The translations under genes and the position numbers were made by a program. A stretch of DNA of 32,000 nt from Methanocorpusculum parvum (lineage in GTDB: Archaea; Halobacteriota; Methanomicrobia; Methanomicrobiales; Methanocorpusculaceae): NCBI GenBank assembly GCA_015063085.1, contig SUTD01000003.1, positions 1 through 32,000 on the forward strand. The letters are read 5' to 3'. Under the pieces are notes generated by a model. The model had not been told where the DNA came from and made no database searches. It worked only from the letters and a program-made list of their open reading frames with translations. This document shows, piece after piece, positions 19,689-31,919 of this stretch (position 1 is its first letter; each line of letters begins with the position of its first letter).

Positions 19689-22600
19689 TTACACTGCTTT
19701 CCACACGCCGTTTTCTTCGACAAGAAGTCCTGATGCAGAAGCGGCATCAATTCCTGCCTCAATACGCTGTTTTACCTGTGCTGTGGCCTTGAATCCAAGA
19801 GAAAGAGCGGTCTGTTTTACTAAGTCAGCCTTCGGAGTTGCGAACTGCTTTTCGAGGACAATTCTTGCGGCAAGCCCGATTTCCTCTAAGGAAACGTCTG
19901 CAATAGACCACTTGCCTTCACGCTCGCGGGCAGTGAGTTCTCCTCCTGCTATTGAGTAGAATTTTTCTGCATCGCGCGTCAGTGTTCCTTCAGCAGCAGA
20001 TGCCTCGGCAAGGTTTACAATCCGTTCCTTGATTGCCGCAGTCATTCTCGGAACAGAGCCGAGTTCTTTGACGCGGGCGATTAAGAGCGACTCGGAGATT
20101 GGACCTTCGGCTCTGACAATCTCAACGAGAGCGGTCTGCAGAACTGAGTCATGAACAGAGGCAAACTGGTTGTAGCTCTGGAGAACACAGGAATCACAGC
20201 AGACATACGGCACGAAGCATGCAGAGGAGGTTTGCATCGGAACTTCTTCCGGTAACTCTTCTTCAATCTCTTCGACTGCGTCTGCCGCTGGAATTTCCGG
20301 TTCAGCCGATAACTTCAGCGGCTCTTTCTTTGCGGCCTCCTCAAGGAAGTCTAAGAGCACTTTTGTGCATGATGCCGGATGCTGGAACCATTCCGGAGAC
20401 CAGATGCGGATAAGATTCCATCCAAGCCCTTCCAAAACCTGTCCTCTGAGGCGGTCGCGGTCGCGTGCGTCTGCGGCAGACCAGTAGAACGGTCCGTCGC
20501 AGAGAATTCCTGCCATGTAAACGCCTTCCGTTTCCGGATGGAGAACTGCCAGGTCGATTCTGAATCCTGCACAGCCGACATTTCTGGCGACCGCATAGCC
20601 TTTGTCCTCGAGCATGCGGGCAACGGTTTCCGGGAAGAGATCGGCAACATCGGAACTGATGTCCTCGCCTGCGGCAAGCGGTGCCGCATTTCTGGTCTCT
20701 GCATAGGTCAGGAATGCAGAAAGAGCCGCAACGCCGTCCGGTGTGTCAGATTCGACCGGTAAGTCGTAGCCTCTGAAGTTTGCAAAGACCACACAGCGCT
20801 CGCGGGCACGCGTGATTAAGACATTTAAGCGGCGCTCGCCGCCGGTCTGGTTGAGCGGACCGAAGTTTCTGGAAAGCCGATGGTTCTCGTCGAATCCGTA
20901 GCCGATGGATATAAGCATGGTGTCACGCTCATCACCCTGCACGGTTTCCAGATTCTTGACGAAGAAGTGTTCGCCGTTTTCAGGGCGCATGGCTGCTTCC
21001 ACATCCGGATTGTCGCGGAGGAGAATATCCACTTCGCGGCGAATCAGCTCCTGCTGACGGGTGGAGAAGGTAGCAACGCCTAACGTTTTGTTTGGGAATC
21101 TGCGGTAGTAGTCAAGGACAGCCTCGGCAACCGCTTTGGCTTCACCCCGGTTGACGCCTGCCTTTCCGCGCTCATAGACCGTATCCGGGAGATGGACAAG
21201 CGAGAGACCCAAGTCATCGGTATCGTGCATTGGAGACGGGAAGACCTGCAGCGTTCCGTCATAGAACTCCGCGTTGGAGACGGCAATCAGAGACTCATGC
21301 CGCGAGCGGTAGTGCCAGCGAAGCCGTTTGGTAACAAACGACTGCTTGCAGACATGCAGCAGGCTTTCCATATCGGTGATGCCTGCGGTACTTTCCTCCT
21401 CCTCATCGTCTTCTGCGCCGCCAATCTGATCGAAGAAGGTGGTCGGCGGAAGCTGACGGGAATCTCCCATGACAACCAACTGCCGTCCGCGCATCAGTGC
21501 CCCTAAGGCATCCTCCGGCTTGACCTGACTTGCCTCATCGAAGATGATGATATCAAACATCACCGACCGCGGGTCTAAATACTGCGCAACGGATAAGGGA
21601 CTCATCATGAAGCACGGCTTAATCTTCTGGATAAGTGAACCCGACTTGGTCATCAGAGAGCGAATCGACATGTGACCGCGTTTTCTGTTGAACTCGCCGG
21701 TTAAGACTCCCATCTCCGACTCGCGGGATGCCCCGGTGAAGAGTTCCGGAATATTTCCGTCCAGAATCTGCACGAGACGTTTTGCGTTGGATGCAACCTG
21801 CTGGCGGTCAAACTCTTTGAACGCCGCAATCTTTTGCTCATGCGGCATCTGCGAGAAGTGGGCAAGGATTGGACGCTGCTGGTATGCCTCTTTGAGGAGT
21901 GCATCGGCATAGCCGGTTAAGAATGCCGGAATCAGGGCATCATGGTCAATCTTGTCCGTTAAGATAAGCGGGAGAACCGGTGCTGCCGCAGTTCCTGCGC
22001 AGACTTCTGCGTACGCAAGCAGTTTGCTCCACTCCTCAAGCCGGTCGATGTCGGTAATCCAGATGTCAGCCTGACGCCGCATCTGGGCAAATGTCAGGTC
22101 GTCCGGAATCTCATCGATTCCCAGACGTTCATAGAGAAGGGCAGACTGTTCGCTGTGCTCCTTTGCCGCGGCTTCGAGGTCGGCAAAGAGGCCTGCCATA
22201 ACCTCCGGGTCCAGCGTCTTGTCTGCGATGCGGGATACCGTCTGCTCGGTGATTAAGCCCTCGGAAATCATGGTGCGGATGGCAGAAATCCAGTCGCGGT
22301 ACGCAGAAAGAACCGAAGCATCGGTGTCCTCACCGTTCCAGACCGGAGCAAAGAGGGAGCGGTAACTCCGTTCCTCGGAAAGCCATCCGTCCCTGTCCGT
22401 CAGATAGTTTCTTGCCTCCTTCAAATCGGAGAGAATCACATGGTCTGCCGGAAGCGAACCGCCGTAGTATCCGCGAAGCTCCTCTTTCAGCCGTTTGAAG
22501 TCGCCGGAGAAGAGTTTGCTGATGACGTTCTTCTCCGAGTACTTCATGAACTCGGAGTAGAGGCGGGCAGGGTTTCTGGCGAAAATCTCCGGCGTGAAGA

Positions 22601-24395
22601 TGCCGAGAATCTTCTGGCGTGTCTCGGAGAGCTTCTTCATGCGGGAGATTAAGCGGTCAACCGCTTCGGTGTTGTCCCATAAGCGGTTAGCTAAAATCTC
22701 CGGCGTTGCCGTGAACTCGGAGGAAAGCGAGCGGCAGATTTCCATCATGAGCGGAACGTCCGTCTCGCTTCGCGGGATCGGAATCTCTGCCGCTTCGGAT
22801 ACGGCACGCATTGCGCAGACCAGACGCTCGATTCCGTCGCGGTAGGATACGGTGGCGTCATGAATTTCATCCCGGTCTGCGGGAAGAATCATCCCTGGTC
22901 TGGTCTCAGCCCATGGGTGCGTGGAGAGGCTTTCTCCGTCACGGAGAATGGACGGGATGTAGGATTCGATATCCGCTAATGCTGATACTGCCGCCTGATA
23001 ATCCTCCGGTGTGATTGCTGACGCATTTTCGACTGCTACCTTCGGCAGGCGGAAGTTCTTTCTGCCCGGACCGTTTTCGAACTCGTAGCGGTACTGTTCC
23101 CGGATGCCGAAGAGATCATACGGCGAGAATCCGCAGGCGCCGATTGGCTCACGCAGTTCACTGCAGTAGCCGGAAAGCTCCGTCTTCAGTGCTTCGATCT
23201 GCGTCGAGTCGCGGGAGTCAACAGCAGGAGAGGACGGATGCTGAATACAGCGTTCGAGTTCCCGGATGAACTCAACCTTCTTTGCGGTCTGGCTGTGGAG
23301 TTCCAGGCAGAAGCGGGAAAGACCGGCACTGTCCAGTCTTCGCTTGACAACTTCCAAGGCAGCCATCTTTTCGCTGACGAAGAGAACGGTCTTGCCGGAA
23401 GCAAGCATCTCTGCTATCATGTTGGCGATGGTCTGGCTTTTTCCGGTTCCCGGCGGACCTTCGACCACCAAGTTCTTTCCGGCCTTTGCCTCGCGAATGA
23501 CTGCAAGCTGCGAGGAGTCGGCATCCACGATGTTGCAGCAGTCTCCTGCTGCCTCCGGCAGGTCTACGGATTCCGCCGGGGCTTCTGCCGGGTGGAAGAT
23601 GGCGTTGATTAAGGGATTGTCCTCGATTGCAAACTCCTCGCCCCAGCTTGCCGGGTCAAGGTCCTTGAACATCACATACTTCTTGAAGCTGAAGAGGTCA
23701 AGCACGACCTCCGGGCAGAGCGTCCAGCCCTTTTCTTTGATGATTTCCTCAACAGACTCAAAGAATGCGCTGACATCGGCGGCACTTTCCGGATGCCCTA
23801 AATCCGGCAGTTCGATTCCCTGCTCGGCAAACTTGGCGGAAAGCGATAAGGAGACAACAGGATCTTCGCCTGACCAGCGCAGGGTATAGTTTTCTTTGAC
23901 TTTCTGCCGTTCCAAATCGACCGGCAGTAAGAGAAGCGGAGCTTTTAAGGGTTTGGCGGATTCGTTTTCCGTCCACTGGACAAAGCCGACGGCAAGATAG
24001 AGCGTTGGATATCCCTGCTCTTCAAAGACGGTCCGGCTTTTGTTCTGGAGGCTGTAGAGTTTCTTTCTCAGCTCAATATCGGTATAGGGAGTATCTAAGA
24101 CAAGGTCGGTATGCTTTGCGCTTTTGGAGAAGATTGGGTATTTCCAGATGTTCTTTTCTTCGGGAGCAGAAGAGGTATCCTTTTCTCCCGGCTGGAACTT
24201 CATGCCTTTCTCGTCCAAGACAAGGGATTGGTATATCTCGGCTAAGTGGGATTCGACAATCTCTATTGACCTCGCGGCAGAGGGTTTGTAGTTTAGGAGA
24301 TTATTTCGAAGAGTCAGGTCGAGCAGGCGGTTTCGCAGTTCTTCCAGATCTGATGTGCCTGTTGTCATTGTGTAGTATATGGGGGTTTGGAGCAT
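19689..24395 (-). CDS. Giant SF1 (Upf1-like) helicase: DUF4011-like N-terminus, AAA_11/AAA_12 helicase core, Vsr/DUF559-like REase domain, DUF3320-like tail
   Basis: - **N-terminus:** LLDLTLRNNLLNY and APLLLLPVDLER.
- **Helicase core:** Walker A GPPGTGKSQT (aa 313-322), motif II IIFDEASQ (aa 950-957), VVMGDSRQLPPT, TVQGDERD, NVLITRARE.
- **Nuclease-like domain:** GFRIDLAV...CDG...RDRDRLRGQVLEGLGWNLIRIWSPEWF (aa about 1255-1340).
- **Start:** possibly M10 at 24368. Confidence 0.9.
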   Translation of the reverse strand: MLQTPIYYTMTTGTSDLEELRNRLLDLTLRNNLLNYKPSAARSIEIVESHLAEIYQSLVLDEKGMKFQPGEKDTSSAPEEKNIWKYPIFSKSAKHTDLVLDTPYTDIELRKKLYSLQNKSRTVFEEQGYPTLYLAVGFVQWTENESAKPLKAPLLLLPVDLERQKVKENYTLRWSGEDPVVSLSLSAKFAEQGIELPDLGHPESAADVSAFFESVEEIIKEKGWTLCPEVVLDLFSFKKYVMFKDLDPASWGEEFAIEDNPLINAIFHPAEAPAESVDLPEAAGDCCNIVDADSSQLAVIREAKAGKNLVVEGPPGTGKSQTIANMIAEMLASGKTVLFVSEKMAALEVVKRRLDSAGLSRFCLELHSQTAKKVEFIRELERCIQHPSSPAVDSRDSTQIEALKTELSGYCSELREPIGACGFSPYDLFGIREQYRYEFENGPGRKNFRLPKVAVENASAITPEDYQAAVSALADIESYIPSILRDGESLSTHPWAETRPGMILPADRDEIHDATVSYRDGIERLVCAMRAVSEAAEIPIPRSETDVPLMMEICRSLSSEFTATPEILANRLWDNTEAVDRLISRMKKLSETRQKILGIFTPEIFARNPARLYSEFMKYSEKNVISKLFSGDFKRLKEELRGYYGGSLPADHVILSDLKEARNYLTDRDGWLSEERSYRSLFAPVWNGEDTDASVLSAYRDWISAIRTMISEGLITEQTVSRIADKTLDPEVMAGLFADLEAAAKEHSEQSALLYERLGIDEIPDDLTFAQMRRQADIWITDIDRLEEWSKLLAYAEVCAGTAAAPVLPLILTDKIDHDALIPAFLTGYADALLKEAYQQRPILAHFSQMPHEQKIAAFKEFDRQQVASNAKRLVQILDGNIPELFTGASRESEMGVLTGEFNRKRGHMSIRSLMTKSGSLIQKIKPCFMMSPLSVAQYLDPRSVMFDIIIFDEASQVKPEDALGALMRGRQLVVMGDSRQLPPTTFFDQIGGAEDDEEEESTAGITDMESLLHVCKQSFVTKRLRWHYRSRHESLIAVSNAEFYDGTLQVFPSPMHDTDDLGLSLVHLPDTVYERGKAGVNRGEAKAVAEAVLDYYRRFPNKTLGVATFSTRQQELIRREVDILLRDNPDVEAAMRPENGEHFFVKNLETVQGDERDTMLISIGYGFDENHRLSRNFGPLNQTGGERRLNVLITRARERCVVFANFRGYDLPVESDTPDGVAALSAFLTYAETRNAAPLAAGEDISSDVADLFPETVARMLEDKGYAVARNVGCAGFRIDLAVLHPETEGVYMAGILCDGPFYWSAADARDRDRLRGQVLEGLGWNLIRIWSPEWFQHPASCTKVLLDFLEEAAKKEPLKLSAEPEIPAADAVEEIEEELPEEVPMQTSSACFVPYVCCDSCVLQSYNQFASVHDSVLQTALVEIVRAEGPISESLLIARVKELGSVPRMTAAIKERIVNLAEASAAEGTLTRDAEKFYSIAGGELTAREREGKWSIADVSLEEIGLAARIVLEKQFATPKADLVKQTALSLGFKATAQVKQRIEAGIDAASASGLLVEENGVWKAV

Positions 24396-26646: not shown

Positions 26647-27243
26647 CTAGAATGGCATACTGTAATTATTAATACACTGATTGAAATTAACAGAACTACC
26701 TGAGCATGCTATTGACAAAAAATTATTTGGGGTGTCATTTACCCCCAATGCACGCATTGAAGTGGCTCTCTTGTGGACACGAGATGATTCAATATGATTT
26801 ATGCAGACATAATACTCCTGAAATGATGAAAGGAAGTTTTTCTGATTATAACACTCCTTAGCAACAATTTTACAGTATTCAATCAGACATTTTAAACCTT
26901 TGAGCTGTTTGGAAACTTCAATCTTATTTGCCCCACCACGTTTTAGTTCAATATATATTATACAATTTGAAATATTCATATCAGTCCCATCTACAATCAA
27001 ACAATAATCTGCGTGTTTTTCCTTGAATGGTAAGTACTTATCCAAATCACTTTTAATGAGAACATAATTATGAGGAACTTTTACAATATTTACACTATAT
27101 TGGTGACAGGAATTTGACTCAGACAAAGTAAGATTAACATATTTATCATTCAAAGAAGAAGTGTAACTCGCATTTATAAATTCAGCTTTGAAGATATTTG
27201 TTATGAGAGGTAAATCAGGATGTGGATGAGGGAGAGGAGTCAT
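26647..27243 (-). CDS. Small PD-(D/E)xK-motif protein (predicted restriction-endonuclease-fold nuclease), partner of the upstream ATPase
   Basis: KHADYCLIVDGTDMNISNCIIYIELKRGG gives D83 or D89, a 14-20 aa spacer, then E103-L-K105 in a beta-strand-like hydrophobic context. ATG 27243 lies 2 nt after the ATPase stop. The alternative GTG 27255 overlaps it by 10 nt. About 30-35% GC. I recognise no family. Confidence 0.5.
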   Translation of the reverse strand: MTPLPHPHPDLPLITNIFKAEFINASYTSSLNDKYVNLTLSESNSCHQYSVNIVKVPHNYVLIKSDLDKYLPFKEKHADYCLIVDGTDMNISNCIIYIELKRGGANKIEVSKQLKGLKCLIEYCKIVAKECYNQKNFLSSFQEYYVCINHIESSRVHKRATSMRALGVNDTPNNFLSIACSGSSVNFNQCINNYSMPF

Positions 27244-27245
27244 GC

Positions 27246-28643
27246 TTAATTCCACAGTAGTTTATCCTGAATTTCATTCATCATATTAATTGAGTCATCA
27301 AAACTTGAGATTGAAATTCCCCAATTCTCATCCACATGCACAGGAACTAAAGTATATGCATCATTTGGCTTCTTAGATTTACTTGATGAATACTGCTCCG
27401 TGGCGTAAATCTTAATATTTTTTGGGTTGAGCACCTCAGACTCATCGTATCCATACATCTCCATTATATCATTACTTTTAGAATTATTCTGGTTAAATAA
27501 TATCAACGTGTTGAACTCTCTTATAATATAATCACTATGTGTAGTAATAAATATCTTAATTCCAGCATTTGCCAGTCTTACAAATAATCTTGCGATAAGA
27601 CGCTGGTTTTCAGGATGAAGATTAAGTTCTGGTTCATCCACGATGAGATTTTCATTTTTCTGTGCGCGGTGACGCAAATAGTAATCTATATGGATCAACG
27701 CACGAGCAACACTTGAACTCTCAGTAAGTTGAAGTTTTGGAGAACGTGATTTTGATAACTTGGGGATAAAGATAACATCACCATCTTTATCAATTCCATA
27801 TGTACCTCCAACAATTTCACTAAATTTAGCCAAAATCTCTGGGTTTGATTGTGAGAGTGGACTCTCCAGATGAAGCGAATCAAGTTCCTGAATAAAAGTT
27901 ACATTATCTTTAACTGGAAGAGGGTATAGAGAATAGGAACTAAATAGAAATTCATGTATATCAATATCTTTATCTTTGGTTGCGGACTCACTAAGCTTTT
28001 CCACGATACGATTTCGATTCAAATATAATTCTTTTTTAAAGATACTAGCACCTGTTCTTTCAACACTGGCGATAAACGTATCAGAACCAAACACATTTTT
28101 AAACATCACACGCAGGATGGTATGACCAATAAGAGTCAATAAGAAAGTCGATGGGAGAGGAATTGTATCATTTTCATTAATATTTGATACATATAGTATC
28201 TTTTTATCGACATCAGTATTAAATACGAGTGATTCACCATATTTTACTTTAGTTGGTGCTGGAATAAGTACGTCTGAATCATCCAAAATAATCTGAAACT
28301 TTGAATTTTTAAATCTCTTTTCTGTTGATGCAAATACTCTGTAAAGAGTTTTTGAGTATATATCACAGATATTATTAAGTATATTTGAGTAGTTATCGAG
28401 ATACTTTCCAATATTTATTTCTAATACCTTGTTTTCCTTGAGTTCATCAGTATTTATATCAGATAAGTCAATAATTTCATCAGAATATTCGATAAGACCT
28501 GTTTTCAGAAAATTAAGAAACCCATAATATGCATATGTTACATAAGTTTTACCAGAATTATTCTTACCACAAATTACCGTGATATCTCCAGGGACTAGTT
28601 CTGCATGTTTTATAGCACCTATGTTATCAACTATTATCTTCAT
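27246..28643 (-). CDS. ABC-type ATPase of the AAA_15/AAA_21 class (the ATPase type found in OLD/GajA, PtuA and AriA)
   Basis: Walker A GKNNSGKT (aa 26-33), a roughly 270-aa insert, signature-like TESSSVARAL (aa 307-316), Walker B/D-loop LIVDEPELNLHP (aa 333-344), H-loop ITTHSD (aa 366-371), and a roughly 95-aa C-terminal extension. A possible TATA, TATACTAAAA (28671-28680, minus strand), lies about 33 nt upstream. Confidence 0.85.
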   Translation of the reverse strand: MKIIVDNIGAIKHAELVPGDITVICGKNNSGKTYVTYAYYGFLNFLKTGLIEYSDEIIDLSDINTDELKENKVLEINIGKYLDNYSNILNNICDIYSKTLYRVFASTEKRFKNSKFQIILDDSDVLIPAPTKVKYGESLVFNTDVDKKILYVSNINENDTIPLPSTFLLTLIGHTILRVMFKNVFGSDTFIASVERTGASIFKKELYLNRNRIVEKLSESATKDKDIDIHEFLFSSYSLYPLPVKDNVTFIQELDSLHLESPLSQSNPEILAKFSEIVGGTYGIDKDGDVIFIPKLSKSRSPKLQLTESSSVARALIHIDYYLRHRAQKNENLIVDEPELNLHPENQRLIARLFVRLANAGIKIFITTHSDYIIREFNTLILFNQNNSKSNDIMEMYGYDESEVLNPKNIKIYATEQYSSSKSKKPNDAYTLVPVHVDENWGISISSFDDSINMMNEIQDKLLWN

Positions 28644-29104
28644 AAAAATCTGTATTGTATTATTTGTTTTTTTTAGTATAGAGTTGTTTTGTTGAGAGTA
28701 GTGTATCGTACCAAAAAAAAGAATCGTCTTTGAGTTGTGTCAGATTCAACTTTAGTGTGTCACTCAACAACACTAGGATTGCCCAAGTTACACAACATAA
28801 AAAGGATTCATTTTTTGGAGGGAGGGGGTGGTACAGCACAAATTTAGATTATGCCCCTTAAAATATAAGGCAAGACCTTCGTTATACCAGAGAACACAAC
28901 TACAACACAAACCAAAAGCAGTGGTGTAAAGTCCTCAATTGGAATGCAGTTTTAATAAGAACATAGTAAATCAAAAACGCAACTGCAACAGAGATTGTTA
29001 TTGAAAAATAGGTAGCTCCAACTCAGACTACGAATTGACTTATATAATTAAGAGTATAATTACATTGATTATAGATACATACTTCAGAAAGACAAATGGA
29101 ATAA

Positions 29105-29514
29105 AAAAAACGAACTATCAATAATATGGCACAGATTATTGATATTCCAGCAGATGCAAGAACTCGGAGCTGAATATATTTATCAAGAGTATAGAACATT
29201 ACTCCATTATGTTACATCATGAATCATTCCTTCCCCAATTTTGAGATTGTGTAAGTCAAGTTGTCTCTGGAATTCCACCCAGACAAGTTTGTCAACACTG
29301 GTTTAAACATGCACCCTCTAAACAACTAGATTGCAGAATTGTCAGGGATTGAATCTGGACGATTGGGTAAATACCATAAAGAAAGATGATTATTAATCTC
29401 GTGTTCTATGGCAATATCAGAGAGATTGTAACAGACTTTAAGTGACCGGGTTTTAAACATCAGGACAACATCAACATTAGGATGCCCAGCATTGGAAGAC
29501 TGATTATAGTACAT
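29105..29514 (-). pseudogene. Decayed transposase remnant with a DUF772 (InsH N-terminal, IS5/IS1182-like) domain
   Basis: The 62-aa ORF reads GHPNVDVVLMFKTRSLKVCYNLSDIAIEHEINNHLSLWYLPNRPDSIPDNSAI, matching the DUF772 consensus (grP.....ll.k.lllq.ly.lSd..le..l.d.l....Fl.......PD.st).
- **In-frame stop:** a TAG at 29326-29328 is followed by LFRGCM..., the expected FR..l continuation.
- **Frameshifted pieces:** further FYTLDKYIQLRVLASAGI and HIIDSS-like segments lie in other frames down to about 29110. Confidence 0.6.
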
Positions 29515-29784
29515 GGTTTCCAGAATTAGGTGGAAAGCAGATTAGTCAATAAGTATTCCAACTTCAGATAAACAGACGCCGATTTTGTAGCAACGATTGA
29601 AATAAATCCCATTCAAACAAAAACTCTGAAAGATAGTCATGAAATTATATTGTCCAAGCAATAAAATAGTGATTGTGAATTAAAAATATGAGTTATTAGA
29701 AATTCCCCATATGTGTATTTGTTGTGTGTATTTTATGTGTTTGTATTGATAATATACTTATAAACACTATAAATGTAGAATATA

Positions 29785-31791
29785 TTATGGTGATTTGTTC
29801 TGGAACATTATTGCAAGTCTTGTTATAAAAATAGCAAGAAAGATGTAGTTAATTATAGATAGTAAAAACATAAACACACTTACAAATGTAGATTCACCTG
29901 ATGTGGATGTATATAATGACAAGTAAGATGGAATATCATTAGTAAGTCCCCAAATATATTCTGTTAAATTAAATGAAGATGATTCTATGATGAGTTCATG
30001 TATATTCCAATAGAGGGTAATAAGTATAAAACTAATAACATTTACAATTCCTAAACAAATGAATGTTAATTTGCTATTTGTTCCATAGTCTGATAAACTC
30101 CAAAATATTCTAACAGGTATTTGTAGTATCTTGTGCTTTTTATACCATTTGTTCCAGTATATTTGACGTATATTTCGTTCTAAATATGATAATAAGTTTG
30201 GATTAATGCGAGATGTGGAAAGGCTAACGCCACTAAAATCAGTGTGTTTGTTTGCAAAATGTTTAGAATTACCTTTGAAGATAGTACTGGAATCAACAGA
30301 ACTCATTACAAATACTGCATCCTTAATGTTAGTGTATGAAAATATTGCCCCTTCTAGCTGACTATATGATAGGTATGCACCAGATAAATTTGCGTTTGAA
30401 AAATTTGCCCCCCTAAGATTAGCATGTGTCAAGTTTGCATTACTGAGATTCGCTCTCTTAAAATTAACATTTTCAAGATTGCTATATGTGAAGTTTACCC
30501 CAACCAACGATGAATGCTCAAAATTGGCTCCTGAGAGATTCGATTCAAATATTGTCATACCATCCAATGATAAATGTGACATTTCAATATTTGGCATGTA
30601 AACATGTTTCAAAACAATGTTCTCATAATCTTTAATCATTTTACGTTGCTCAAGGAATCTGATATATTTTGACCAATTCTCTTGAGACCAGAGTTCATAA
30701 AATGAATTATACATCTCTTGCCTTTTATTAGTTACAGAATGTGATAATTTTGGAGAGATGGAATTCTCATCAAAACAGAGAGAAGACAATATATAGAAAG
30801 AATCACGGATGTTGGACGATAAATAGTGCTTAAATTCATCAACTGCAGCTGTCTTATTTGAGACATAGTGTTCACAACACATAGCCAATATTTTTGGATA
30901 CTCAGTACTAGTTTGGGTTAATTTTTCTAACTTTTCAAAATCAGAACAATTTATATTACAACCAATTGATTTGATAAATTCATAAATTACCTTTCCCCTA
31001 TCATGTTCATTATCCATTTTATTCATCCTTCCTAAATATATATAATCATCCTTGAATTTCAAATCACAAATATGCGTGTTGTGATATCTAAGTCTTACTA
31101 TCAATATTTTAAGAAAATTGACCAATTTTTGTTTTTTTGATACACCAACCTCATTATATATCTCATCTGTTGAAGAGACCATGATTATAGCCCTTCGAGA
31201 ACTTTCTACTTTATCTATAACAAATCCATTTCGAATGTAGTATGAAGCTGCACCATATTTTGAATCAAGATAGATTAATTCATATTCTTTATCACATCTA
31301 AAACATTTATCCTTACCTCGATTATGATTAAGATACCTTAGTGTACGAAATATGGAGTATATTAAAGAATAACCAATATGGCAACCACAATATCTACTAT
31401 CTCTTCCCAAAGCTTTTATATTTAAGTATGCTTCGTCATTAGGGCCAATTTTTTCACCTAATGTATAGTAACCTACAAAATTATCTTTCCAATACAGAAG
31501 GAATGTTCTGTAGTCATCATTATTTATTGCCTCAGCAATAAGATGATTTCTTATCTCAGGTTCTTCGGAATGGAATTTAATAACAGTAGATAAGTAGGGT
31601 ATACTTTCATTCTTTTTGTGTGTGTGACTCGAAAATAGACTCACCAATTTATTGCCAGATGGTTCTATTGTATATATCACATTTCCTTTTGAATCAATAG
31701 GATAACATGAACAATAACAGATACAATATCTTGTAAAATCTTCTAAAGAAATCGTGTTTTTCTTATCTCGTATTTTATCTAGTAACCACAT
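29785..31791 (-). CDS. Multidomain protein: N-terminal Cys cluster, GNAT-like acetyltransferase fold, unassigned linker, pentapeptide-repeat beta-helix, C-terminal 2-TM module
   Basis: - **Size and start:** 668 aa, ATG start.
- **Cys cluster:** CICYCSCYP (aa 23-31).
- **GNAT-like blocks:** FLLYWKDNFVGYYTL, RDSRYCGCHIGYSLIYSIFRTL, YGAASYYIRNGF (aa about 95-195).
- **Pentapeptide repeats:** about 19 consecutive pentads (aa about 406-505, e.g. NLSGANFEHSSLVGVNFTYSNLENVNFKRANLSNANLTHANLRGANFSNANLSGAYL).
- **C-terminus:** an SDYG motif, then TM helices at aa about 575-597 and 634-660. Confidence 0.8.
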   Translation of the reverse strand: MWLLDKIRDKKNTISLEDFTRYCICYCSCYPIDSKGNVIYTIEPSGNKLVSLFSSHTHKKNESIPYLSTVIKFHSEEPEIRNHLIAEAINNDDYRTFLLYWKDNFVGYYTLGEKIGPNDEAYLNIKALGRDSRYCGCHIGYSLIYSIFRTLRYLNHNRGKDKCFRCDKEYELIYLDSKYGAASYYIRNGFVIDKVESSRRAIIMVSSTDEIYNEVGVSKKQKLVNFLKILIVRLRYHNTHICDLKFKDDYIYLGRMNKMDNEHDRGKVIYEFIKSIGCNINCSDFEKLEKLTQTSTEYPKILAMCCEHYVSNKTAAVDEFKHYLSSNIRDSFYILSSLCFDENSISPKLSHSVTNKRQEMYNSFYELWSQENWSKYIRFLEQRKMIKDYENIVLKHVYMPNIEMSHLSLDGMTIFESNLSGANFEHSSLVGVNFTYSNLENVNFKRANLSNANLTHANLRGANFSNANLSGAYLSYSQLEGAIFSYTNIKDAVFVMSSVDSSTIFKGNSKHFANKHTDFSGVSLSTSRINPNLLSYLERNIRQIYWNKWYKKHKILQIPVRIFWSLSDYGTNSKLTFICLGIVNVISFILITLYWNIHELIIESSSFNLTEYIWGLTNDIPSYLSLYTSTSGESTFVSVFMFLLSIINYIFLAIFITRLAIMFQNKSP
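30217..30594 (-). repeat. Coding tandem array of 15-nt-periodic pentapeptide repeats inside the 668-aa ORF
   Basis: The DNA shows reiterated GCxAATTT/ATT(A/T)GC-type units. The translation gives A(N/D)(L/F)xx pentads. Boundaries are approximate. Confidence 0.75.
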
Positions 31792-31919
31792 TCATTAATA
31801 ATTCTCAGTATCTTTGAAGAGTCCAAGTTTGCATCTTTAGAATTACTATTGTTGGAGTTAGACTTTTTAATAAATCTACCTAACTGACTTAAATCGATTT
31901 CATATTCTATTAATGCCAT
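31779..31919 (-). CDS. Possible 46-aa upstream micro-ORF overlapping the start of the 668-aa gene by 13 nt
   Basis: Hand translation gives MALIEYEIDLSQLGRFIKKSNSNNSNSKDANLDSSKILRIINECGY, ending in a stop. The ATG at 31919 lies about 21-27 nt downstream of a TATA-like AATAATATATAATG (31933-46). There is no homology evidence, and the region could simply be a 5-prime UTR. Confidence 0.2.
   Translation of the reverse strand: MALIEYEIDLSQLGRFIKKSNSNNSNSKDANLDSSKILRIINECGY

Follow-up and report, generated by a model that had tools for sequence, protein, structure and literature searches.

A GNAT domain joined to a pentapeptide beta-helix and a filter-less, channel-derived module in one membrane protein of a gut archaeon

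Why would an archaeon carry, in a single polypeptide, a domain that resembles toxins of the acetyltransferase type and a membrane module that resembles the pore of a potassium channel? The question is raised by a 668-aa open reading frame at 29785..31791 on the minus strand of the window (the whole stretch of DNA that was analysed, 32,000 nucleotides), which starts with ATG and is intact throughout. This gut-archaeon protein is a single-chain membrane protein built from known modules. In order, they are a GNAT domain, an orphan region of ~185 aa that is predicted to be helical, a pentapeptide beta-helix, and a two-transmembrane (2-TM) module without the K+ filter. Scans of the whole protein against Pfam, NCBIfam, PHROGs, and PADLOC returned pentapeptide matches alone. 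A first-pass annotation, made from the sequence, had listed the motifs FLLYWKDNFVGYYTL, RDSRYCGCHIGYSLI, YGAASYYIRNGF, CICYCSCYP, and CFRCD, all of which we found. Of the Pfam families that it had proposed for checking, Pentapeptide matched (PF00805, 78.5 bits), whereas the GNAT region stayed below threshold and Ion_trans_2 gave no direct match.

The GNAT domain covers aa ~63-205 (31177..31605, minus strand) and was placed in the AtaT/TacT/KacT toxin lineage by profile and structure comparison. The assignment rests on these two kinds of evidence because the region alone scored under the Pfam cut-off (14.3 bits against 27, E 0.053), in a match that spanned the full model. A 42%-identical GNAT paralogue on another contig of the same genome, C14 (tblastn 4.6e-24 to the target), passed both Acetyltransf_7 (28.4, cut-off 27) and Acetyltransf_1 (21.5, cut-off 20.7). 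A profile of this GNAT subfamily alone found marginal matches in the PDB (9ILR, 0.008; TacT, 0.05), so we used classical archaeal members as a profile-profile bridge. The subfamily profile aligned with nine classical archaeal GNAT toxins at 99.65% in hhalign (E 4.5e-25), and these nine matched the AtaT, TacT, and KacT structures at 1e-22 to 8e-20. Members of the related classical family were present on 17 viral or prophage contigs, and classical GNAT toxins also occur within the same archaeal genus; the subfamily itself had no matches in metagenome and viral contigs.

The AF2 model of the GNAT region reached a pTM of 0.73 with core pLDDT of 76-92, and the alignment behind it consists of GNAT toxins. 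Foldseek returned 241 PDB matches at E<=1e-3 for this model; the best 50 of the 241 were all GNAT acetyltransferases, with 7BYY, TacT2, KacT, TacT1, AtaT2, AtaT, and GmvT at the top. As modelled, the GNAT alpha/beta fold is present in the target, and in both sequence and predicted fold it is closest to the toxin-antitoxin (TA) clade of AtaT, TacT, and KacT. The GNAT-like domain proposed in the first-pass annotation is therefore real by profile-profile and Foldseek evidence, and the GNAT toxins that it named just as an analogy turn out to be the aminoacyl-tRNA-acetylating TA clade into which the domain falls.

In AtaT, G108 binds acetyl-CoA and Y144 is catalytic, while alpha3 (K77-K82/Y85) and R95 bind the tRNA acceptor stem (PMC7595197). 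The target keeps the Gly (G140, aligned with G108) and the Tyr (Y185, aligned with Y144), the latter invariant in alignments A4, A8, and A9, but it has H138 in place of AtaT G106 and A127 in place of R95. Its motif A loop (Q/R-x-x-G-x-G/A) reads C-G-C-H-I-G, in which the last Gly is G140 and the middle Gly has become His. The beta3-beta4 segment measures 19 aa in the target versus 32-37 aa in relatives, ~16 aa with the Lys-rich, tRNA-binding alpha3 site having been deleted. Both acceptor-stem elements, alpha3 and R95, are thus absent from the target in the alignment with AtaT. Because these determinants are missing, the substrate may not be an aminoacyl-tRNA and activity could be reduced, which somewhat weakens the idea of a sensor/effector or abortive-infection protein.

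Ahead of the domain lies an N-terminal extension (aa 1-62; 31606..31791, minus strand), defined by alignment and modelled by AF2 with low confidence, which contains CICYCSCYP. Extension and start region are common to the GNAT subfamily and paralogues. The cysteines of the target are at 23, 25, 27, and 29 and, in CFRCD, at 163 and 166. Within the N-terminal cluster, only C29 and P31 are invariant among relatives (alignment A4), and CFRCD falls within a ~10-aa insertion specific to the target. The idea that the Cys cluster is a conserved metal site is not supported, as C29 is its sole conserved Cys.

The orphan region that follows (aa 206-390; 30622..31176, minus strand) is predicted, with low confidence, to be helical. 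It had been called a linker of ~200 aa that could not be assigned, and it indeed matches nothing: there are no relatives among 1.84 billion representatives and no Pfam match. Up to aa 370 its pLDDT stays at 25-64, and for aa 371-390 the values are 79 and 67; the N-terminal half of the full-length AF2 model was of too low quality for use. We rejected homology to the N-terminus of the pentapeptide protein on C14, as the similarity is not significant (BLASTP E 0.53).

The pentapeptide-repeat beta-helix occupies aa ~391-510 (30262..30621, minus strand), as judged from Pfam, repeat register, AF2, and Foldseek. Its register is unbroken over aa ~402-506, which gives ~21 units where the annotation had counted an uninterrupted run of ~19 (aa ~406-505). 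The repeats were modelled at pLDDT 94-98, and Foldseek matched the domain to HetL, Qnr, MfpA, and Rfr proteins. Under the definition of at least eight contiguous A(D/N)LXX repeats that form a quadrilateral beta-helix, the target is a pentapeptide protein.

The remainder (29785..30261 including the stop codon, minus strand), delimited by profile and AF2, holds conserved juxtamembrane helices, the FWSLSDYG motif, and the 2-TM module, with TM1 at ~573-602, a pore-helix-like segment at 609-629, TM2 at ~635-664, and the tail ...TRLAIMFQNKSP. The sequence has two hydrophobic segments (~575-597 and 635-662), and AF2 models both as helices, in line with the two TM helices that had been expected. Archaeal tails of this kind aligned with filter-bearing bacterial modules in hhalign at 99.94% (E 1e-36); those modules include ones above the Pfam Ion_trans_2 cut-off, which the target does not match directly, and a PDB profile search with the C-terminal tail gave noise alone. 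A T-x-G-[YF]-G selectivity filter is absent from the target's pore loop, as its unlikeness to TxGYG had suggested, and the filter columns TMTTLGFGD align with a 5-residue gap and YLSLY. By profile comparison, the tail is homologous to the Ion_trans_2 2-TM K+ channel pore and has lost the selectivity filter; because those columns are lost, the protein should not be classed as a K+ channel.

A family combining pentapeptide repeats, an SDYG motif, and a two-helix, channel-like module had been named in the first-pass annotation, and such a family exists. Metagenome contigs contain 220 relatives, and among genome assemblies two relatives, found in KSB1 and Pirellulales MAGs, exceed the Ion_trans_2 threshold. 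The filter motif T[LI]G[FL]G[DN] is found in 62 of 73 metagenome relatives (~85%), 59 of these 62 having TLGFGD. Viral contigs contained no match to the channel module. We found no description of pentapeptide-tethered K+ channels in the literature searched, nor in a 2021 review of pentapeptide-repeat proteins. The filter is missing across the whole archaeal group and not from the target alone; despite this loss, the group shows no variation in TM2 or in the C-terminal motif TR.AIMFQN.S. Some paralogues in the genus carry an alternative soluble tail with a sub-threshold hint of Nuc_deoxyrib_tr (E 0.043).

The gene sits in a setting that the annotation had described as a defence-type island, and the neighbours confirm it. 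A PDC-M47 / PD-T4-4 two-gene defence pair, an AAA_15 ATPase and a small partner, lies at 26647..28643 on the minus strand (GC 0.32; PADLOC scores of 474 bits for PDC-M47A and 433 bits for PD-T4-4_A, and 3.6e-28 for PDC-M47B). Between this pair and the 668-aa gene is a gene-poor spacer (28644..29784) with the remnant of an insertion sequence (IS), a decayed DUF772-type transposase fragment at 29326-29514 on the minus strand (62-aa ORF, weak PF05598:DUF772 match). Both PDC-M47/PD-T4-4 and a second system, PDC-S37/Hhe, are within 10 kb of the gene, and the island as a whole is marked by a low GC of 30%. The 668-aa protein itself matched 0 families in PADLOC v2; the neighbours alone match. On both sides, the island is bordered by glycosyltransferases, an epimerase, a DegT aminotransferase, and FdtA.

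Elsewhere, the two halves of the fusion also occur as paired genes. On C14, a split version consists of a GNAT gene with its own TM tail that is convergent with a pentapeptide/2-TM gene; this locus is without recognised defence neighbours, and its GNAT paralogue matches 0 PADLOC families. A second convergent GNAT/pentapeptide pair is present in genome G437, and a small upstream ORF has been kept at both the target and C14 loci. At the target, it is a 46-aa micro-ORF, MALIEY...ECGY (31779..31919, minus strand), whose stop codon falls 13 nt into the 668-aa gene and which gene callers also predicted on metagenome copies. Its 39-aa counterpart, MALIEY...KWGY, lies upstream of the paralogous GNAT gene on C14, and the similarity of these two sequences is weak (BLASTP E 0.002). 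The micro-ORF had no match in Pfam. No DUF1778/RHH antitoxin gene was detected adjoining the target, with the 46-aa micro-ORF alone upstream. From its sequence and position, the product is a candidate small partner, either antitoxin-like or a leader peptide.

Among 1.84 billion representatives, the target alone has this fusion, and none of the channel-family members seen has an N-terminal GNAT domain, which bears out the annotation's view that the fusion is unusual. An exhaustive search with aa 1-390 yielded just two relatives, which match solely aa 65-205. Word-index searches with aa 1-390 and with aa 510-668 each returned the target protein alone, and the full-length search was swamped by repeat proteins. 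There was no match to aa 1-390 in plasmid and phage records by tblastn, and no match to the island in E. coli genomes by megablast.

We favour the reading that the protein is a membrane-tethered GNAT toxin or abortive-infection-type effector that was acquired horizontally with the defence island, and we give this a probability of roughly 0.45. The channel-derived hairpin would anchor the protein in the membrane and oligomerise it, and the pentapeptide rod with the juxtamembrane helices would serve as stalk or sensor. The effector would be the GNAT domain, cytoplasmic and dependent on acetyl-CoA, which would acetylate an amine of some cytoplasmic target, perhaps one related to translation. Since AtaT requires dimerisation, oligomeric state would be expected to control GNAT activity here too, and the MALIEY product may be a further regulator. 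A trigger might also cause the degenerate pore to leak ions.

The strongest competitor, which we still consider unlikely, is that this is a physiological membrane protein with no part in conflict. It would be a diverged sensor or scaffold of the genus's pentapeptide/2-TM family, with a GNAT domain that is regulatory (acetylating the protein itself, a partner, or a small molecule) instead of toxic. That family is present in 5/5 sampled genomes of the genus, in several copies each and at a near-native GC of 0.40-0.57, while the target and the C14 pair stand apart as a branch of 30% GC located in islands. Most environmental relatives resemble ordinary K+ channels with the filter intact, and at least one is among apparently ordinary genes, namely the bacterial member L033 (ORF translations judged by eye); the target, by contrast, is flanked by defence systems, and its unique fusion is not a conserved housekeeping architecture. 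The missing alpha3 tRNA-binding segment and the lack of a recognised antitoxin would also fit a regulatory enzyme, yet the nearest GNAT relatives in sequence and fold are all TA toxins.

A less probable account is that the gene is a recent chimera without a selected function, in which a rearrangement in the low-GC island joined GNAT and pentapeptide/2-TM genes through unrelated sequence and left a product that is inert or decaying. It would explain a singleton among 1.84 billion representatives with an orphan, poorly modelled linker of 185 aa and an IS fragment next door. At the DNA level, the eight copies retrieved do not differ at all (8/8, 100% identity), so nucleotide diversity among them is nil, and the G437 pair appears decayed, with a TAG codon inside the GNAT gene and the tail disrupted. 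Yet the target's 2-kb frame is intact in DNA of 30% GC, in which 668 stop-free codons would arise by chance with P ~3e-24. H138 has replaced a conserved Gly, but the gene retains G140, Y185, and the TM2 and C-terminal motif that are invariant in the family, and the lost filter is common to the whole archaeal group and therefore does not count as a defect of this gene in particular. Paralogues share its start region and N-terminal extension, and the upstream micro-ORF and its overlap geometry have been preserved.

A more elaborate form of the toxin reading, an assembly-gated immune or toxin module, is speculative and in our view improbable. A channel-derived, tetrameric anchor and the rod would hold four TacT-family GNAT domains at the membrane until a trigger, for example a viral protein that binds the beta-helix or a perturbation of the membrane, let dimers form that would acetylate a new, non-acceptor-stem target and cause arrest, with MALIEY as a minimal antitoxin. 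Last, a membrane-anchored acetyltransferase acting on an intermediate (sugar or lipid-linked) of the glycosyltransferase locus around it is very improbable: glycan genes do lie on both flanks, but the gene's GC of 0.30 is unlike theirs, the island is shared with the defence pair and IS remnant, the GNAT domain is in the toxin clade and not among sugar N-acetyltransferases, the locus already has a separate Acetyltransf_1 gene, and the C14 paralogous pair is outside any glycan locus.

Compared with known systems, the membrane-tethered toxin that we favour has an ancestry in two of them. GNAT toxins are known as free enzymes of small size that are restrained by RHH antitoxins. With AtaT, TacT, KacT, ItaT, and GmvT, whose RHH partners are of the DUF1778 type, the target has in common the GNAT fold and lineage (its best profile and Foldseek matches), the N-terminal F-x-S/C-x-E...L...A helix, the beta4 and acetyl-CoA loop Gly, and the Tyr at the catalytic position. 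Those toxins are free proteins of ~170 aa, whereas the target's GNAT domain forms the N-terminal part of a 668-aa membrane protein, behind a 62-aa extension; unlike them, it has alpha3 deleted, Ala for R95, His for G106, and a 46-aa micro-ORF instead of a DUF1778 antitoxin. A membrane-tethered, fused GNAT without the classical antitoxin or tRNA-binding helix would suggest that control works by another logic and that the substrate, too, may differ.

The second ancestry is in the uncharacterised, mostly metagenome- and MAG-derived K+ channels tethered to pentapeptide repeats, with which the target has the same order of parts: pentapeptide helix, RI.P...LE.N.R..W..WY helix, FW.[LI]SDYG, TM1, pore region, and TM2 with TRFA. 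Family members have 300-420 aa and, in ~85%, a TLGFGD-type filter, whereas the target shows a deletion of 5 residues and lacks the filter; it also has IMFQNKSP where they have VLFTAGGPAG, and ~390 additional N-terminal residues that include the GNAT domain. The comparison exposes a sizeable uncharacterised family in which the pore of a K+ channel is joined to a pentapeptide beta-helix in the cytoplasm, and in whose archaeal branch ion selectivity has been discarded while the module is still under constraint. The DNA mimics Qnr, MfpA, AlbG, and EfsQnr are Foldseek matches to the repeats (E 1e-7 to 2.4e-5), but the target scored far under the cut-offs of the NCBIfam Qnr models, and its repeats, unlike theirs, are shorter (~5 coils), tethered to the membrane, and non-acidic, with a net charge of -1 over 120 aa.

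In CBASS, Pycsar, and retron TM effectors, a cytoplasmic sensor or enzyme is followed by a short C-terminal TM module, and the genes lie in defence islands. The target resembles these effectors in layout and context, with no sequence relationship and no PADLOC match; unlike theirs, its putatively pore-forming TM module traces back to the pore of a K+ channel. To our knowledge, archaeal defence islands are far less explored than bacterial ones, and the fusion and its split paralogue offer a concrete case of toxin and channel parts recombining in them. Should the assembly-gated form be true, the filter-less archaeal pentapeptide/2-TM proteins with swappable tails would be a sensor-effector family that had gone unrecognised until now.

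The target gene is an intact, ATG-initiated open reading frame of 668 aa on the minus strand (29785..31791). At its GC content of 30%, 668 stop-free codons would arise with a probability of ~3e-24, so we treat the frame as a coding sequence, and its start codon is corroborated by a 62-aa N-terminal extension common to its GNAT subfamily. Every motif listed in the first-pass annotation (Cys cluster, CFRCD, GNAT-like strands, repeats, and tail) lies where it had been placed, with cysteines at positions 23/25/27/29 and 163/166. The Cys cluster is present but not conserved, as C29 and P31 alone are kept, and CFRCD sits within a target-specific insertion. The repeat run is indeed uninterrupted, but its pentad register continues for ~21 units from aa ~402 to 506, instead of about 19 over aa ~406-505. 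Two hydrophobic segments, at aa ~575-597 and 635-662, agree with the two C-terminal TM helices proposed. Direct library scans recognized the repeats alone (Pfam Pentapeptide, 78.5 bits); no GNAT, Ion_trans_2, or PADLOC model matched the target in these scans. The target is a real, unusual protein built from known parts.

When aa 1-390 were searched exhaustively with HMMER against 1.84 billion protein representatives, only two relatives emerged (P0121 and P0122), and their matches are limited to aa ~65-205. A 286-aa paralog on contig C14 of the source genome shares 40-42% identity with aa 63-205 (tblastn E 4.6e-24) and exceeds the Pfam cut-offs for Acetyltransf_7 (28.4 vs. 27) and Acetyltransf_1 (21.5 vs. 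20.7), while the target alone scores 14.3 bits over the full Pfam GNAT model. A target-subfamily profile aligned to a profile of nine classical GNATs with 99.65% probability (E 4.5e-25, 154 columns), and the nine-protein profile in turn matched the solved structures of AtaT (1e-22), TacT (1.5e-20), and KacT (8e-20). An AF2 model of aa 40-225, built on an alignment of the C14 paralog and GNATs from viral contigs, reached a pTM of 0.73 and a core pLDDT of 76-92; its best Foldseek matches were 7BYY, TacT2, KacT, TacT1, AtaT2, AtaT, and GmvT (TM 0.6-0.69). Together, the paralog's Pfam scores, the profile-profile bridge, and the structural matches make the GNAT assignment, suspected on first reading, solid, with the aminoacyl-tRNA-acetylating toxins as the nearest clade.

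Aligning the target to AtaT, with residue roles taken from PMC7595197, revealed a mixed pattern. The Ac-CoA-binding G108, whose G108D substitution abolishes toxicity, is kept as G140, and the catalytic Y144 is kept as Y185. The motif A glycine G106, for which that paper gives no role, corresponds to H138, and R95, which acts in tRNA recognition, corresponds to A127. The alpha3 stretch K77-Y85, through which AtaT binds the acceptor stem of the tRNA, lies within a ~16-residue deletion in the target (segment length 19 aa vs. 32-37 aa). GNAT chemistry is probably retained, and the substrate may differ from those of known toxins.

Classical GNAT toxins (~170-230 aa) also occur in ~8 of the 44 other genus genomes searched. 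In G017, a 68-aa ORF (L050:134-340, +) stops 15 nt short of a classical TacT-like GNAT gene (L050:355-858) and is a possible archaeal antitoxin. Another genome, G431, holds five TacT-like gene copies (L038, L049, L053, and two more), two of them with internal stop codons, a local GNAT-toxin expansion with decay.

The middle of the protein (aa 206-390) matched nothing in the 1.84-billion-representative scan or Pfam, and AF2 modeled it as low-confidence helices. We considered homology to the N-terminal part of the pentapeptide protein encoded on C14 and rejected it, the similarity being nonsignificant (E 0.53).

From aa 392 to 667, the target is 44% identical to that C14 protein. After the repeats comes a module consisting of an 'RI.P...LE.N.R..W..WY' helix, FW.[LI]SDYG, TM1, a loop, TM2, and TR.AIMFQN.SP. 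It was present in 5/5 sampled genus genomes, often in multiple copies and in host proteins of 285-805 aa, with no convincing instance in a sample of ~395 other genomes of the phylum. Its non-archaeal carriers among species-representative genomes were two MAGs (KSB1 and Pirellulales), whose proteins pass Pfam Ion_trans_2 at 25.3 and 35.3 bits (cut-off 22.5), and a further 220 loci were found on metagenome contigs; the recurrent pentapeptide, SDYG, and two-helix channel-like family described in the first-pass annotation therefore exists. TLGFGD occurs in 59 of 73 extracted metagenome proteins, with close variants in 3 more. Archaeal tails match these filter-bearing modules with 99.94% probability (E 1e-36), yet the selectivity filter is absent throughout the archaeal group; in the target its columns hold a 5-residue gap and 'YLSLY', consistent with the earlier remark that the pore loop is no TxGYG filter. 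TM2 and the C-terminal motif are invariant in this group despite the filter loss. AF2 pLDDT was 91-98 for the beta-helix and juxtamembrane helices and ~50-88 for the hairpin, and Foldseek of the full-length model returned pentapeptide proteins alone. The family is usually 300-420 aa long, and no member examined carries a GNAT domain, in line with the first-pass annotation; no other protein in the 1.84-billion-representative scan shares the fusion.

The filter-bearing members (L054-L133, L032, L033; ~300-420 aa) form a large family that combines an N-terminal 'EQYDMLKRCS..D.TEWN.WR' cap, a pentapeptide beta-helix, FWxxSDYG, and a 2-TM Ion_trans_2 pore with TLGFGD; we found no literature on this family. 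In some genus paralogs (L014:1-1317, −, G018; L031:580-2046, +, G022; L036:1893-3056, −, G437), a ~120-aa soluble domain, 'NVFVAMKF...GWIPQ...ISDLTY..GVYYETGYA', with a sub-threshold match to Nuc_deoxyrib_tr (E 0.043), replaces the 2-TM tail, which suggests that tails are swapped on a shared repeat scaffold. Two ~800-aa members (L017 and L024, from G009 and G004; open frames of 797 and 805 aa, or 726 aa when counted from the first ATG in the loci) have a very long acidic pentapeptide helix of >90 A[DN]L..A.L-type repeats and a ~70-aa insertion between the juxtamembrane helix and FW.ISDYG.

The halves joined in the target are convergent neighbors at C14:67083-69630 (L152:5083-7630; L011), where a 39-aa micro-ORF just before the GNAT start is followed by the 286-aa GNAT gene, whose product has its own C-terminal TM helix and which lies tail-to-tail, 32 nt apart, with the 398-499-aa pentapeptide/2-TM gene. 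Both genes lie at the margin of an island (29-40% GC) made up largely of orphan genes, alongside one encoding a double-wHTH protein; just outside the island, a PDDEXK_3 nuclease-family gene (L152:3803-4546, −; C14:65800-66546; 110 bits) adjoins the micro-ORF and GNAT gene. In G437, a GNAT gene that contains an internal TAG converges on a pentapeptide gene whose tail is seemingly disrupted. The target has an upstream micro-ORF of 46 aa, overlapping its ATG region by 13 nt. Both source-genome micro-ORFs begin with MALIEY and end with GY-stop, and a BLASTP E of 0.002 is suggestive of kinship.

The target's contig (C23) belongs to a 1.4-Mb MAG, ~80% complete, that is archaeal (Archaea_SRP, 166 bits). 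A low-GC island (28-34% vs. ~49% for the genome) runs from ~26.5 kb to the window end and contains a PDC-M47 / PD-T4-4 ATPase and partner pair (26647-28643), a decayed DUF772 transposase fragment, and the target gene. Just outside lies a 1568-aa DUF4011 helicase-nuclease (19689-24395, −), which matches the PADLOC candidate PDC-S37 over its full length (1520 bits) and Hhe partially (617 bits). On either side lie genes for glycosyltransferases and sugar modification. These features mark a defense-type insertion in a surface-glycan locus, upholding the defense-type island first proposed. The target, both C14 genes, and the PD-T4-4 genes have a GC content of 30-32%; in other genus pentapeptide/2-TM genes it is 40-57%. 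The exact protein occurs on ~23 metagenome contigs, each time in the same context, and the eight copies retrieved are 100% identical in DNA over gene and flanks, so population variation is uninformative on selection.

Our preferred reading, to which we assign a probability of about 0.45, is a membrane-tethered GNAT toxin or defense effector. Given that the N-terminal ~570 residues lack a signal peptide and TM segment, they would be cytoplasmic, as in the channel family; the 2-TM module would serve as a membrane anchor and, if it behaves as K+ channel pores do, would also oligomerize the protein. As AtaT activity requires homodimerization (PMC7595197), a multimeric scaffold is a plausible means of controlling the GNAT domain, and the micro-ORF may encode a minimal antitoxin. 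A membrane protein with a physiological regulatory role is the less likely explanation. Somewhat less likely again is a recent chimera with no selected function. A glycan acetyltransferase, suggested by the flanking genes, is very improbable for a domain nearest to tRNA-acetylating toxins.

Our literature search found no description of pentapeptide-channel or GNAT-pentapeptide fusions, and a 2021 PRP review (PMC8145042) mentions neither; one paper reports pentapeptide repeats fused to Orc/Cdc6 proteins in counter-invader contexts (PMC10853773). Unlike TA GNAT toxins, the target has neither an RHH antitoxin nor the tRNA-binding helix, and unlike pentapeptide-tethered K+ channels, it has no selectivity filter. 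Lacking defining features of each, it should not be classed as a TacT-type TA toxin or a K+ channel; these two systems are nonetheless those from which it descends and like which it would work.
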